The notes beneath the pieces are model-generated. The model made no database searches. It was given only the letters and a program-made list of their open reading frames with translations, and was not told the origin of the DNA. DNA of 64,000 bases, taken from Thermodesulfobacteriota bacterium (lineage in GTDB: Bacteria; Desulfobacterota_D; UBA1144; Nemesobacterales; Mycalebacteriaceae). Numbering within the stretch: position 1 is the first letter of the stretch; every line of letters starts with the position of its first letter. Below are positions 5,601 to 13,217 of this stretch, one piece after another. The position numbers were made by a program, and so were the translations under genes. Location: assembly GCA_965226585.1 (NCBI GenBank), contig OZ245366.1, forward strand, positions 960,001-1,024,000, written 5' to 3'.

Positions 5601-7548
5601 TCTTTGCTATCTTGATTGTGGGAGCGATGGGGCTTCCGTCTTTGTTTTTCCACTCCTGCAGTTTCTGATAGATGAACGGCCTGAAAAGTTCAAGCGCCAT
5701 CTGTTTGGGAAGTCCGCACTGATGGAGTTTCAGGTCGGGACCAACCGTTATGACAGAACGCCCGGAGTAGTCAACCCTCTTTCCAAGAAGGTTCTGGCGG
5801 AATCTTCCGCTTTTGCCCTTGATAATGTCCGTCAAACTTTTGAGCGGACGGTGGTTGTGTCCCAGAACGGGGCTTCCTCTTCTCCCGTTTTCAAACAGGG
5901 CGTCAACCGCCTCCTGAAGCATCCTCTTCTCGTTCCTGACGATAATGTCCGGAGCGTCAAGTTCCTGAAGTCTTTTCAGCCTGTTGTTTCTGTTGATAAT
6001 CCTTCTGTAGAGAACATTCAGGTCTGAAGTCGCGAAACGCCCTCCGTGCGGAACAAGCGGACGCAGGTCCGGCGGGAGCACGGGAATGGTTGTCAAAACC
6101 ATCCATTCGGGGCGGTTGTTTGACTTGCGAAAAGTCTCGCAAATTTTGCGCCTTTTCGCTATTTTTCCCTTCTTGAGCGGCGAACTGGATTCCTGCATCT
6201 CAGTTTTCAGTTCTTCGGAAAGCGCCTTCAAATCAGTGCTTTTCAGCATGTTGTAAATAGCTTCCGCGCCCATGCCGTATGTGTAGTCAACCACGAACTC
6301 ATCATCGGCTTTGGCAAGAATCTCTATTTCCTCACCCGTAAAGGTTGAGTTTTTTATCATTTTGTTGAGGTCGTCCTGAGACTTTTTCATCTCCGCCTTT
6401 GTCCTTTCAAGGCTCTCATGGGCGGACTTCAGATGAGGCGGAACCTCTTCGCCTTCAGCTTCAACTTTTTTCAGATGTTTTTCAGCCTCTTTCAGGGCTT
6501 TCCTCATGGCGGCGTGCTCTTTCTTGCCGTCTCCCTTGAGAAGGTTGTCGCGAGACGCGCTCACAGCGTCTGAGCCGGAAATGGCTTTAAACGCTTCCTG
6601 TATTTTCTTGTCGCTTGAGGGCAGTTCCTCAAGTCCGAGGGCTTTGTAGTCAGCCGCGAATTTGCTTTCAAACTCTTTTTTCACAGAGTTGACGGCGTCT
6701 TTCGCGTCTTTAAGTTTTCCGCCCTTTTTTGTGTCTTCAGATTCAGACACTTTGGCGTCGTAAGCGGTGCGCTCTTTCGCGATTTTCTCTTTCGCGCTGA
6801 GAAACGAAGCCACAATTCTCTTCGCGTCCATTGCGGACACTCCCGTTTTTCCGGACATAATGCCCTGAAGCGAAAACTTTGTCGCCACTTCTGCCGGAAT
6901 CAGATGTTTGTACCAGCAGTCTTTCACCAGAAACATCTCTTCCTCACCCATAAGCAGATGCGTCAGGCGTTCCGCCTCTTCAGCGGTTTCAAGTTGGGAG
7001 GATACGTCTCCGGGCAGTCCTTTGAGAGATGATATAACGTATTCCGCCTCTCTGAGTCTGGAAAGTTCTTCTTCTGTGAGGGTCTGTCCCATTTTCAGGG
7101 AAGATGTTCCCGGGTCTATTACGGCGTGAGACTCGTAGTAGAGAACCCTGTCAAGGTCTCTGAGGCTCATGTCAAGTATCATTCCGATACGGCTGGGCGT
7201 ACTGCGGAGAAACCATATGTGGACAACGGGCGAAGCGAGGTCTATGTGCGCCATTCTTTCGCGCCTGAGTTTGGAGGTTGTAACCTCAACGCCGCATTTT
7301 TCGCAGACAATCCCTCTGTGTTTCAGCCTTTTGTACTTTCCGCACGCGCACTCGTAGTCTTTTACGGGTCCGAATATTTTTGGGCAGAACAGGCCGTTTT
7401 TCTCCGGCTTGAACGTTCTGTAGTTTATCGTTTCGGGCTTCTTGACCTCTCCGTGAGACCACGATTTTATGGCTTCAGGAGACGCTATTGATATCTGAAC
7501 CCCGGAGTAGTTGTCCGATTTATCTTTTACTATATCTTCAAAATCCAT
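2665..7548 (-). CDS. rpoC: DNA-directed RNA polymerase beta-prime subunit with a large N-terminal insertion
   Basis: KPETINYRT, Zn-finger CxCG..C..C, catalytic YNADFDGDQM, TQLTMRTFH trigger loop followed by an SI3-type insert; follows rpoB. Confidence 0.99.
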   Translation of the reverse strand: MDFEDIVKDKSDNYSGVQISIASPEAIKSWSHGEVKKPETINYRTFKPEKNGLFCPKIFGPVKDYECACGKYKRLKHRGIVCEKCGVEVTTSKLRRERMAHIDLASPVVHIWFLRSTPSRIGMILDMSLRDLDRVLYYESHAVIDPGTSSLKMGQTLTEEELSRLREAEYVISSLKGLPGDVSSQLETAEEAERLTHLLMGEEEMFLVKDCWYKHLIPAEVATKFSLQGIMSGKTGVSAMDAKRIVASFLSAKEKIAKERTAYDAKVSESEDTKKGGKLKDAKDAVNSVKKEFESKFAADYKALGLEELPSSDKKIQEAFKAISGSDAVSASRDNLLKGDGKKEHAAMRKALKEAEKHLKKVEAEGEEVPPHLKSAHESLERTKAEMKKSQDDLNKMIKNSTFTGEEIEILAKADDEFVVDYTYGMGAEAIYNMLKSTDLKALSEELKTEMQESSSPLKKGKIAKRRKICETFRKSNNRPEWMVLTTIPVLPPDLRPLVPHGGRFATSDLNVLYRRIINRNNRLKRLQELDAPDIIVRNEKRMLQEAVDALFENGRRGSPVLGHNHRPLKSLTDIIKGKSGRFRQNLLGKRVDYSGRSVITVGPDLKLHQCGLPKQMALELFRPFIYQKLQEWKNKDGSPIAPTIKIAKKFVETSSPVVWDALDDVIKEHMVMLNRAPTLHKLSIQAFEPVLVEDRSIRVHPLVCPAYNADFDGDQMAVHVPLSVEAQTECRTLVMSTNNILSPAHGKPVILPTQDIVLGIYYMTKDSAHSKGDGKYLSSPEEVIMAYNSGYLGIHARIKVKIKADTVETTVGRVILYHEAIPESLPFDLVNKPMSKHEVEGLVDTCFRMKGGKETVVMADRIRTLGFKYATKSGISISINDMEIPGNKERLVEQARKEEEKVREQHSQGLITDGERYNKIVDIWSKTSDEVADEMMENIKFDTVSDESGEEKHGSSSNPIYMMIDSGARGSKTQVRQLAGMRGLMARPDGTIIEKPITSNFREGMKVMDYFISTHGARKGLADTALKTANAGHLTRKLIDVAHDIIVTEENCRTIEGLLYTNIVEGGKVRERVGDRVLGRVVLDDLKDPDTGETIVKGGEEIDNEAADKINASSISEIKIRSVLTCDTEEGICRLCYGRNLSTGKIVDIGEAVGIMAAQSIGEPGTQLTMRTFHIGGAASQSAMQNTLENNYAGIIKMSSLETVETGGVLIVTNRNGRVSVVDDKGYERENHKLELGSRLKVKDGEKVKEKTLLAEWDPYTTPIISETSGTVKWEDLESGITLKEQVDEVTGMLEKVVIETKNTKLKPRIVLLKGGATSANRDSLQSEDLPTGAIIEKSDGEEVKPGDIIAKIPKETAKTKDITGGLPRVAELFEARIPKDLAIVSEIDGNVSFGDDFKGKRRVFVQPKIGEKKEYIVPRGEHILVRGGDFVVAGEKLVDGDENPHDILKIKGEKALSEFLVNEIQEVYKLQGVRINDKHIEVIVRQMLKRVKIKDPGDTTMLPGEPVSKTLFHKENSEVEEQDGKPATAEPLLLGITRSSLSTESWLSAASFQETTKILTEAACEGKEDKLKGLKENVIIGKLIPAGTGLDVYRNITIDKEEEEIVSVPLVEETKSENLTEKPGV

Positions 7549-7566: not shown

Positions 7567-10500
7567 TTATTTTTCCGCCCTTGTTTCATTTTCTTCGCCT
7601 GAGTCTGGAGTCAGTTCTATCTGCAGTCCGAGAGATTGAAGCTCTTTTCTGAGAACGTTGAAAGATTCGGGAAGTCCCGGATCAAGCGACATTTTCCCTT
7701 CAACAATTGACGCGAACATTTTTGTTCTTCCGGCAACGTCATCAGACTTGACGGTAAGAAACTCCTGAAGTGTGTGCGCCGCGCCGTATGCCTCAAGAGC
7801 CCACACTTCCATCTCTCCAAGTCTCTGTCCGCCGAAGTGCGCTTTTCCTCCGAGCGGCTGCTGGGTGACAAGAGAGTACGGACCTATTGAACGCGCGTGT
7901 ATTTTCTCTTCAACCAGATGGTGGAGTTTCAGCATATACATAATTCCCACCGTAACTTTCTGGTCGAACGGCTCGCCCGTAAGCCCGTCAAACAGGATTG
8001 TTTTCCCGTCATCGGAAAGCTCGGCGAGTTCCATAAATTTCTTTATCTCCTCTTCCTTTGCTCCGTCAAAAACGGGCGAAGAAACCGGAACACCGTTTTT
8101 GAGAGACACGATAAAATCGCGCACCTGCCCGGCGCTCATTTTGTCTATAAAAGAGGTGTCCACACAGCCCTTTGTGTAGACCTCTTTCAACTTGCTCTTT
8201 ATGGCGTCCGCGCTGTAATTTTTCTCTATGTGTTCGTTTATCTGCTTTCCAATCACCTTGCTTGCCCAGCCGAGGTGAGTTTCCAGCACCTGCCCCACGT
8301 TCATCCTTGAAGGAACTCCGAGCGGGTTCAGAACCATGTCAACGGGGGTTCCGTCTTCCATGTAGGGCATGTCTTCCTGAGGAAGTATCTTTGATATAAC
8401 GCCCTTGTTTCCGTGCCGCCCCGCCATTTTGTCTCCGACCTGCAGGTTCATCTTCACCGCAACGTAGACCTTGACGGTTTTCAGAACTCCCGGAGGAAGG
8501 TCGTCTTTCTGCTCAAGTTTTTTCTTCTTGTCCTCGTATTTGGCTTGAAGCGTCTCTATCTGCTCTTCGCAGAGAGCAACTGTTTCTTTGACCTGAGCAA
8601 GCAGGGTTTTCGGCTCAACCTTGATGCTTTTCGCGCCTTCAAGAGACAGAAGCCGCACAGATTCTTGAGTGAACGCCTCGCCTTTTGAGATAACTTTTGA
8701 ACCCTTCACCGTGATGTTCGCGGACGCTTTTTTGCCCTTCAGAACAGACGCTATGTAGTCAAGCGCGCTCTGCTCAAGAATGCTTTTCTCGTATTGAGTC
8801 GCCTGGCTTATTTTGTCAATTTCTTTTATCTCAATCTCTTTCGCTCTCGCGCTTTTCTCCTCAACCGAGCGCGATGTGAGCACCTTAACGTCTATGACCG
8901 TTCCGGCTATTGAAGAGTGGCTTTTCAGGGAAGTGTCTTTCACGTCTCTTGCCTTGTCGCCGAATATTGCCCGCAGAAGTTTTTCTTCCTGCGAAAGCTG
9001 CATCTCGCCCTTGGGAGATATTTTGCCGACAAGTATGTCGCCCATATTGACCGTGGCTCCAACACGGACTATGCCGCTATCGTCAAGATTCTTGAGCGCG
9101 TCTTCTCCAACATTTGGAATGTCGCGGGTTATCTCTTCCCTGCCAAGTTTTGTTTCTCTCGCCTGACACTCAAACTCCTCTATGTGCACGGAGGTGAATA
9201 CGTTGTCTTTTACGATTCTTTCACTGATAAGTATCGCGTCCTCAAAGTTGTATCCCCCCCACGGCATAAACGCCACCATGATGTTCTGCCCGAGCGCAAG
9301 TTCGCCGTTTTTGGTTGAGGGACCGTCCGCGATGACCTGCCCTTTCTTGATTTTCTGCCCTTTGGAAACGATGGGCGTCTGGTTCCAGCATGTGCCCTGA
9401 TTGGACTTGTGGAACTTTATCATTTTGTATATCTCAACGCCCATGCCCGCAGAGTCAGATTTTTTGTCTTTGTTATTCCTCACGACTATAACCTCGGCGT
9501 CTGAGTGGATGACCTCTCCGTCCGCCTTTGCTATAACCGCAACTCCCGAGTCTCTGGCAACCGAAGATTCAAGCCCGGTTCCCACAAGCGGAGAGTTCGC
9601 CCTTATGAGGGGAGCCGCCTGCCTCTGCATGTTCGAGCCCATAAGAGCCCTGTTCGCGTCATCATGCTCAAGGAACGGTATGAGAGACGCGGAGATGGAA
9701 ACAAGCTGGGAAGGCGAAACGTCCATGTGCGTAACTTTTTCCTTCTCCACCATTTTTATTTCGCCCTCAGAGCGGGAGGAAACAAAGTCCAGCATGAACT
9801 TGCCGTTCCCGTCAAGAGGTGCGTTTGCCTGAGCGATAACGATGTCTTTCTCTTCCTCTTCCAGAGCGCTCATTTTTACTATTTTGTCCGTCACCTTCCC
9901 GCTCTCAACGATACGGTACGGGGCTCTGATGAAGCCGTAGTTGTCAATCTCGGCATAGGTACTGATGCTTGAAATAAGCCCGATGTTCGGACCCTCAGGC
10001 GTTTCAACGGGGCAGATTCTTCCGTAGTGGGAAGAGTGCACGTCTCTTACCGCAAAGCCCGCTCTTTCTCTTGTCAGACCTTTGGGTCCCAGAGCGCTGA
10101 GGCGTCTTTTGTGTGTTATCTCAGACAGCGGGTTCGTCTGATCCATAAACTGCGAAAGCTGTCCGGTTTTGAAAAAGTCTTTCACTATCGTGTCCACGAC
10201 CTTCGGAACAACTATCTCTCTGGGCATTTTGTTCTCTATGCTCTGATACCCGATTCTCTCTTTTACGGAACGCGCAAATCTCTCAAGACCGCTGTAAAAA
10301 GTTTCCTCTATCAGTTCGCCGACCGTTTTAACCCTGCGGTTGCCCAGATGGTCGATGTCATCCGCAGACCTGCGTCCGCCTTTGAGTTCAAGCAGATATT
10401 TCAGGGTTTGGATTATGTCCTCTCTTTTGAGCACAAGGATGTCTTCATCAACGTTGTGCTTTAGTTTGTAGTTCAGTTTCTTTCTGCCGACTTGCGAAAG

Positions 10501-12009
10501 CCTGTATTTTGAAGGATTGAAAAACATGTCGGTGAAGAAAGTCCTCGCGGCTTCCCTGCTTGGCGGATCGGTGGGACGGAACTTTCTGTATATCTCGGCA
10601 ATTGCCCCGTCACAGAAAACATCCGTGTCCGCTCCGATGTCCGCAAATCTTTTCCTTATAACTTCCAGATGGTCGGGAGACAGCTCCTCAACCCACGCCT
10701 CGTCTTCTTCTTTTTCTTTGAGTTTGAGCGTGTAGTTTGACTTGGAAAGGCTTGCCAGCATTTTTGAAAACTTCGCCTTGTCCGCCTTGTTCCGTCTTAT
10801 TCCCAGCGCGAAGGTTGTGTTCACTTCGTCACCGTAAACCCGTTTCTCTTCAATCAGGGTTTCAGCGATGGAAGACGATACGGAGATGTCGTCCGTGTAG
10901 TAGAAAGAGACAGTTTCAATTTGCGCTTCTCTCATGGCGCGCAAGGTATCTTCCGTTATCTTTTCCCCGAAGCGCGTTACCACTTCACCCGTGCTTTTGT
11001 CAACGATGCTTTCAGAGCCGGCATACACTTTGTCAATCAGTTCGGAATCGCTCTCAAGCGGGATGGCGTTTATCTTGTTCTTTTTCAGGATTTCTATAAC
11101 CCTTTTGGTGAACTTTCTGCCTTTCTTGTGAATAAGCTCGCCGCCCTTTTTGATGTCCGCCGAGCTTTTCTGATAGATGATGGTCTCAGGGTTTATCTTT
11201 TTCGAGATGCCGCCGCCCTTTTCAAACTTGACAGTTTCAACATCGTAGAAAAGGTTCAGTATGTTTCTTTCGGTGTAGCCGAGGGCTTTGAGAAACAGCG
11301 TAACGACAAACTTTTTTCTGCGGTCAATGCGGACGTTGAGAAAGTTTTTTGAATCAAAATCAAAATCCAGCCACCTGCCGTCTTTGGGTATCACCCTTGC
11401 CACAAAAGATTCTTTTGTGGAAGAGCGAGCCTGCTCTCCGGGTTTGGGCCCGTCGAACAGAACACCCGGAGAACGGTGTATCTGGTTCACTATCACCCTT
11501 TCGGCTCCGCCTATGATGAAAGAGCCGTTGTCTGTCATTCTGGGAATTTCGCCGAAATAGACGTCCTGCTCGGTTACTTCTTTTATGTCGCCGCTTCCGT
11601 CTTCCTCAAACACTATCAGGCGCAGGGTAACGTAGAGGGAAACTGTGTAGTCATAGCCTTTAAGTCTGCATTCGGTTTCGTCAAACTTCGGCTGAAGGTC
11701 GTATACTTCGTGCCCATTTTTGTCTTTTACGGGTCTGCCGTCTTCGTCAAGCACCCTCTGACCGAGGCTGTAATGCTCAAAGTCCAGAGAGGTTTTTTCA
11801 CCGTAATTGTCTATGGGGAATATCGCCTTGAAAACCGCCTGCAGTCCGTGGTTTTCCCTTTCCCCTCTTTTCTCCGGTTCCACGTCTTTCTGCAGAAACC
11901 TTTTGTAGGATTCCGTCTGAACATTCAGGAGGTTGGGAATGTCCTGAATCGCGGGTATTTTGGAGAAACTTACCCTTCTTTTTTCACTGTCAACCGTTTG
12001 AGAATTCAA
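7567..12009 (-). CDS. rpoB: DNA-directed RNA polymerase beta subunit
   Basis: [32 protein letters not shown] and [17 protein letters not shown] motifs. Start placed at TTG 12009 downstream of a GGAGG Shine-Dalgarno; the ORF track extends to 12042. Confidence 0.99.
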   Translation of the reverse strand: [1480 protein letters not shown]

Positions 12010-12109
12010 TATAAAAAAGCCCTCCGGAGCAAGCGCGCGCAAACGTTTCCGCTGCGTGCGCGAAACACACCAATTTCAAAACCACAGACAAAACTGCCCG
12101 CCGCAACCG

Positions 12110-12505
12110 TCAGCTCAGTTCCACGGTCGCGCCGGCTTCTTCGAATTTCTTCTTAAATTCTTCCGCTTCGTCCTTTTTCAGCCCTTCTTTTATAAGCTTG
12201 GGAGCACCCTCAACAAGCTCTTTGGACTCTTTGAGTCCCAGGGATGTAATTTCCCTGACGACCTTGATAACCTGAATTTTGTTTTCCCCTGATTCTTTCA
12301 GGGTAATGCCGAATTCAGTTTTCTCAGCGCCTCCGGCGGCATCTTCTCCGCCCTGAGCGCCAGCCGCGGGAGCCGCCGCCACTGCGATCTGAGGAGCCGC
12401 TTTTATGTCAAACTTCTCCTCTATCTCCTTTATGAGCTCGGATATCTCCATCATGCTCGCTTTTTCAAGGTAGTTAATTACCTCTTCTTTGGTCAAATCA
12501 GCCAT
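12110..12505 (-). CDS. rplL: 50S ribosomal protein L7/L12
   Basis: Ala-rich hinge and C-terminal domain KTEF...[28 protein letters not shown]...AGATVEL. Confidence 0.98.
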
Positions 12506-13217
12506 CGCTGTTTTCCTCCTTTTGTTTTTTATTATCTGAAGATTCTTCTTCCGTTGCCTTTGCCTCTTCCGCCGGAGAGTTTTCCGCCGCCTTCACTTCA
12601 CTTTCACCCTCTGCGGGTTTTTCCGCGTCCTCTTTCTTATCTTCCGCCTTCGCTTCTTTTGTTTCTTCTTTTCCGATATCTTCCGCTTTTTCTTCCCCGC
12701 CGTCCTTTGTCTGCTTCAGCGCTTCAAGACCGAACAGCAGTTTGGAGCGCATCTGCTCCAGAGAGTTCGCAAAGTTTGACATCGGTGTGGCGAGAACGGA
12801 TGCGAACATTGATATAAGTATCTGTCTTGAAGGCAGTTTTGATATCTTTTCAATCTCTTCCGCTCCGCACACTTTGCCTTCAACAATTCCGCCTTTAATG
12901 AGGAGTTTTTCAAACTCTTTCCGCGCTTCGGTGAAAACCTTTGCCGTTGCCGGGGATTCCTGACCGCATATTGCTATCGCGGTAGGACCCTGAAAAAGAT
13001 CTTTTATTTTCTCAACTTCAGTGCCTTCACACGCCTTGACGAGAAACTTGTTTTTGATAACCCGCAGTTCGGCGTCCGTCTTTTTGACCTGTCTTCTTAC
13101 AGACTGCATGGATTTCACGTCAAGCCCTCTGTATTCAATCACAAGAACTGAAACCGGATTCTGAAAAATGCCGGCAAGTTCGTCTATGATTTTCTTTTTG
13201 TCTTCTTTCTGCTGCAT
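12498..13217 (-). CDS. rplJ: 50S ribosomal protein L10 with a ~70-aa acidic C-terminal tail
   Basis: YRGL..VIKN..GPTAIA..KGGIVEG..LPSR motifs; lies between rplA and rplL. Confidence 0.95.

Follow-up and report, generated by a model that had tools for sequence, protein, structure and literature searches.

A beta-lobe insertion in RNA polymerase very likely derived from the C-terminal domain of L7/L12, the neighbouring ribosomal protein

In a 64,000-nucleotide stretch of DNA from a Thermodesulfobacteriota bacterium (contig OZ245366.1, positions 960,001 to 1,024,000; in the following the window), the gene rpoB, encoding the beta subunit of RNA polymerase, carries an extra segment. The original prediction, made from the sequence alone, had described this segment as a captured C-terminal domain from ribosomal protein L7/L12 (L12, product of rplL) and as either a neutral passenger or a docking module for translation factors. 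This raises the question where the segment came from and whether it still acts as L12 does. Translation of the window showed a core of 68 residues lying in frame within rpoB (Table 1). Both this core and the window's own L12 C-terminal domain translate as had been quoted, the open reading frames confirmed that rplL lies immediately upstream of rpoB, and the flanking motifs, predicted to be about 10 residues apart elsewhere, were separated by 10 residues in Pseudomonas RpoB and by 83 in the window in a pairwise alignment. The net gain of 73 residues replaces the loop after E. coli RpoB residue 351 and sits between the SI1/BEAN domain and a conserved helix of the lobe. The host belongs to a genus of small-genome bacteria, in which this piece is additional to the ordinary RpoB beta lobe. 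In contigs from 4 runs and 3 studies, including one sponge and one cave metagenome study, no indels were observed across the insert; one of the runs is possibly the source of the window DNA.

The lobe insertion was found in all five assembled rpoB genes of the genus and in none of 25 other loci of the order (first 30 loci aligned). When the lobe was compared in 111 distinct sequences from class and metagenome loci, it measured 374-382 residues in the 5 genus sequences and 303-357 residues in the 106 others. A profile search of 120 genomes of the phylum gave strong matches in the same 5 genomes only, and the rpoB of a sixth genus member was not found in that search. As an in-frame domain in a surface loop, present in a single lineage, the segment belongs to the broad kind of lineage-specific RNA polymerase insertions. 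In an RpoB tree of 15 rows the genus is placed on a long branch.

The best one-gap alignment of the window's insert with the window's L12 contains 14 identities, of which 12, the number claimed originally, lie outside an unalignable middle. With this single sequence, BLASTP against L12 gave an E of 0.59, which is not above chance, and no PF00542 match was obtained at E<=10. The likeness became significant only when the four genus-mates were added. A family profile of the five genus inserts, built without any L12 sequence, matched 13 PDB sequences at E<=10; the top 10 were all L7/L12 (best E 0.0036, positions 3-63 of 64) and no EF-G was among the 13. Its profile-profile score against L12 was 28.35, compared with a mean of 10.3 and a maximum of 21.96 for 300 column shuffles and 9.32 for the reversed profile, so that all 300 shuffled controls were beaten. 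The family profile gave a probability of 74.6 for L12 and of 0.56 for EF-G domain III, and four of the five inserts fitted L12 better than EF-G domain III, the exception being the window's insert. The gathering cut-off of PF00542 (25.9 bits) was not reached by any insert of the genus (best member E 0.056; genome G001, 12.6 bits). The profile comparison proposed with the original prediction thus bore it out against shuffled controls and for the five inserts together, but not for the window's insert alone. As judged by these profiles, homology to the C-terminal domain of bacterial L12 (bL12) is detectable above controls.

To identify the donor, a comparison was made among 92 distinct L12 domains of the retrieved loci (6 from the genus, 86 others), with E. 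coli numbering after chain 3j9y_7. Four L12 columns, chosen after inspection, are fixed in the genus and rare elsewhere: F110, L98, T57 and L93. F110 is found in 6/6 genus L12s and 0/86 others, L98 in 6/6 and 3/86. Since both of these genus-typical residues are invariant in the inserts, the adjacent rplL is indicated as donor, and the residue evidence for it appears good but not decisive. The mean insert-profile score was 17.1 bits for genus L12s, compared with 11.5 and 10.6 bits. Invariant L12 residues that the inserts have in common are F54, K65, K70, E96, G114 and A115.

A clearer case was observed in two genomes of the same order but a different family, G014 and G024. In 120 genomes, PF00542 identified 117 rplL genes and two extra above-cut-off matches, which lie within the RpoB frames of these two genomes. 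Here the insert occupies RpoB residues about 144-217, at exact L12 domain boundaries, before the IKEQEV strand, which we take to be the Mfd/CarD docking strand; Mfd-type genes are kept in both genomes. The inserts score 47 bits, above the PF00542 cut-off, with an L12 probability of 99.2 and about 42% identity to the L12 profile. The motifs of all three L12 helices are recognisable, V66 and L80 are also changed, and at the DNA level 0 of 300 codon shuffles reached the observed score against rplL. When 185,579 genomes were scanned by pattern for a well-kept L12 tail at this second site, only G014 and G024 gave a match. Donor-to-insert distances are 666 and 587 bases there and 1,501 bases in the window. 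Because G014 and G024 nest with full support among relatives with neither insert and do not have the lobe insert themselves, their phylogenetic placement indicates that the L12 tail was captured twice in one order, at two RpoB sites. The event in G014 and G024 is independent and younger. The survey of relatives for less diverged copies therefore did yield a clearer L12 copy, but at another site and in another genus. The origin as a captured L7/L12 domain is supported by the controlled profile tests, the donor-specific residues and this independent clear case, and derivation from the L12 tail of the neighbouring gene, followed by remodelling, is considered very likely.

In a single predicted model the lobe insert is a compact domain, and a core of 58 residues is shared with L12 at 1.8-2.0 A. 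The first strand and helix of L12 and its last strand-helix-strand are kept, and a strand replaces the second helix, which results in a ferredoxin-like order of elements. Of the L12/ClpS fold that had been anticipated, this model therefore retains the core but not the second helix, and it ties with ferredoxin-like folds.

In L12, residues K65, I69 and R73 have roles in factor binding. The EF-G-binding residues have been described as V66-V68, K70, L80 and E82 (PMC5887453). As originally noted, the window's insert keeps the equivalents of K65 and K70 and has lost V66 (V/I66), I69 and R73. Columns 66, 69 and 73 do not vary among the 92 L12s but do vary in the inserts, where they are mostly polar, positions 80 and 82 (L80, E82) lie in the helix that is lost from the predicted insert, and K65 and K70 are the sole factor-surface residues kept in 5/5 inserts. 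The conserved factor-binding surface of the bL12 C-terminal domain (66-70, 73, 80, 82) is thus not preserved, and on this sequence evidence the copy in the genus has probably lost translation-factor binding. Among the RpoB segments measured, the insert core is the fastest-changing and least conserved one: within the genus the core is 42% identical, whereas other variable RpoB regions reach 54-63%, RpoB 80% and the L12 C-terminal domain 82%. Of the 13 invariant aligned columns of the insert, the majority are hydrophobic or small. DksA-type, CarD, Mfd-type and GreA genes are retained in the three genus genomes searched. Because the binding residues are lost and the segment is the fastest-changing in RpoB, docking of translation factors is unlikely. 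Of the two roles offered by the original prediction, that of a passenger or structural element is the better fit, and docking is disfavoured by the lost surface and the low conservation. We consider it fairly probable that the insert is a copy of the lineage's own L7/L12 C-terminal domain, taken from the adjacent gene and persisting as a folded surface appendage without translation-factor binding.

Such a copy could have arisen by a tandem duplication that began where the L12 tail begins and extended to a point in early rpoB. If the stretch between the end of the second L12 copy and that rpoB point were then deleted, an in-frame L12 tail would remain in rpoB, and the intermediate would retain intact rplL and rpoB. 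This route would account for the donor being the upstream gene's tail and for the location of both known sites in the first third of RpoB. Selection would now maintain folding and anchoring, as suggested by the conserved core and linkers, and not a binding surface.

Several results weigh against this interpretation. Taken alone, the window's insert prefers EF-G domain III, its best Pfam match (E 5.8e-4), with a probability of 49.5 compared with 4.1 for L12. Its DNA likeness to rplL was reached by 44 of 300 codon shuffles, and in the five genomes, where 6 to 44 of 300 shuffles reached the observed score, this likeness is weak or absent. The genus-diagnostic L12 columns 57 (T57) and 93 (L93) are unmatched in the inserts, F110 is present also in an unrelated L12 (P0015), and E. 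coli L12 equals the best genus L12 in insert-profile score (21 bits). No L12 was matched by the family profile at E<=0.001 among 1.84 billion representatives, an outcome that is expected because the matches are of 20 bits and the library is that large. In the fold search, ferredoxin-like folds rank equal to or higher than L12, and no L12 is among the Foldseek rows shown for the predicted insert. Pure passenger status is also at odds with the invariance of K65, K70, E96 and R107 and with the conserved N-terminal linker. The insert could be a small ferredoxin-like domain unrelated to L12, such as EF-G domain III (PF14492), with a convergent likeness to L12. This is very improbable: the EF-G match is found in one of five inserts, where it reaches 20.3 bits and not the cut-off of 27 bits, whereas the four others and the family profile, to which neither EF-G domain III nor another ferredoxin-like fold is matched, favour L12. 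Convergence would also fail to explain why the inserts have donor-specific residues and precisely the boundaries of the L12 domain.

If the insert is derived from L12, it might still bind translational GTPases or the ribosome and so link RNA polymerase to translation. The invariance of K65 and K70 in 5/5 inserts, the existence of other proteins (P0008, P0055) in which L12 tails are joined to EF-Tu-like domains and two independent captures within one class are in line with such docking. It appears quite improbable, as the positions that are invariant in L12 are mostly polar here, the L80/E82 helix is lost, the younger copies of G014 and G024 are also without V66 and L80, and the two captures occupy different sites. 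Moreover, the ribosome docks at the RNA exit, and the lobe is situated away from it. A new role on the transcription side, in which the L12-derived domain at the lobe tip would contact a 250-residue clamp insertion of the beta-prime subunit, downstream DNA or NusG and aid closure of the DNA channel, is the main alternative, though likewise unlikely. It is consistent with the presence of both the lobe and the beta-prime insertion in 5/5 genus genomes (the latter in 0/9 other order members aligned), with the position of the insert directly before the conserved lobe helix and loop, with the invariant residues K65, K70, E96 and R107, which are of exposed type, and the conserved linker, and with NusG bridging clamp, lobe and gate loop (10.1101/324400). 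However, an identity of 42% would be low in an interface, the genus is on a long branch with many private features that co-occur by descent, and G014 and G024 have the L12 domain without the beta-prime insertion. A broader proposal, that RNA polymerase repeatedly takes the factor-recruiting arm of the ribosome from the next gene and that here the fold switched from helix to strand and gained a working role, either in GTPase or ribosome binding or by locking onto the beta-prime insertion across the DNA channel, is possible but doubtful.

The interpretation as a remodelled L12 appendage was compared with known systems. With the bL12 C-terminal domain (PF00542; PDB 1ctf, 3j9y chain 7, 8yeq) the insert shares length, boundaries, invariant residues and structural core. 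It differs in being embedded in RpoB without dimerisation domain or hinge, only the C-terminal domain being present, in scoring under the Pfam cut-off, in the predicted strand in place of the second helix and in not keeping V66, I69, R73, L80 and E82. The insert very likely descends from PF00542, yet lies outside its membership by score and binding surface, and behaves as a lineage-specific polymerase insertion. BEAN and HABAS are insertions of this kind, gene neighbourhood may have influenced their acquisition, and insertion into RNA polymerase was concluded to taper off after early bacterial evolution (PMC11515920). In the main text of that survey L12 is not mentioned, and the two L12 places shown of 447 in its supplementary table are gene-neighbourhood entries. 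Like BEAN, HABAS and E. coli SI1, the insert forms a folded domain within a beta-lobe (beta-uD2) surface loop and is less conserved than its host, but it differs from them in fold and site, its donor gene can be identified, and its age is at the level of the genus. Assignment to BEAN (bracket fold, TGD/E motif) or HABAS (barrel-sandwich hybrid) was rejected, as the motif is absent in the five inserts and the predicted elements differ. The insert of G014 and G024 is likewise an in-frame L12 tail with exact boundaries; it lies about 600 bases from its donor, within the first third of RpoB, and is unlike the lobe insert in site, age and closeness to L12.

In line with the original prediction, literature searches showed no description of an L12 domain within RpoB among the results listed. 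In a 2024 survey, the mechanism by which lineage-specific polymerase insertions originate was described as unclear and the events as ancient. In the present case a recent donor can be identified in the adjacent gene, and at least two events in one order at different sites provide a young and an old copy, so that capture from a neighbouring gene is open to direct testing. The old copy may also be a natural example of the conversion of an L12-type fold into a ferredoxin-like one. The importance for transcription may be small.

Table 1. Coordinates of the lobe insertion and related features (window positions unless a locus is named; RpoB residues counted from the TTG start)
Feature	Position	Strand	Remarks
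L12-derived core of the insertion	10615..10818	-	RpoB residues 409-476; its end coincides with the column of L12's final residue
N-terminal linker of the insertion	10819..10851	-	RpoB residues 398-408; 77% identical across the genus
C-terminal linker	10606..10614	-	RpoB residues 477-479; 3 residues, returning to the lobe
Conserved lobe helix and next loop	10543..10605	-	RpoB residues 480-500; presumably the gate-loop region
SI1/BEAN insertion of the lobe	10885..11244	-	RpoB residues 267-386; just upstream; ordinary, lineage-specific, also in Proteobacteria
rpoB	7567..12042	-	host gene; 1491 codons, single open frame
rplL (L7/L12)	12110..12505	-	intact, directly upstream of rpoB; likely donor
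C-terminal domain of the window's L7/L12	12113-12319	-	starts 1,501 bases before the insert
RpoC insertion, genus-specific	6310..7056	-	about 250 residues (residues 165-413), after E. coli beta-prime 164
RpoB-embedded L12 domain, G014 and G024	L091:9529-9750, L092:7676-7897	-	loci L091, L092, L197, L198

The RpoC insertion, at what is presumably the Thermus beta-prime insertion site, is 52% identical across the 5 genomes and co-occurs with the L12-like insert. Its relatives in the PDB are limited to designed helical bundles, and no family match better than E 0.02 was found. RpoB of the genus carries a further genus-specific insertion of 22-24 residues (residues 94-117; window 11692-11763, minus strand), 77% identical across the genus. 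In loci L093 and L094 (G012, G026), the FIQTPYR motif of RpoB is followed by an extra 130-150 residues, whose repeats resemble the SI1/BEAN domain of the lobe. The C-terminus of L10 is an acidic low-complexity tail of about 70 residues (window 12498-12710, minus strand), which is similar in G001, G003 and G004, short in G002 and absent in the other families seen. A whole L12 fused end to end with RpoB in the database proteins P0015 and P0054 is probably an artefact of gene models or assembly. L12 C-terminal modules occur also in non-ribosomal proteins: three copies precede EF-Tu domains 2-3 in P0008, behind a signal-peptide-like start, one copy follows EF-Tu domains 2-3 in P0055, and two copies end the 836-residue protein P0009.
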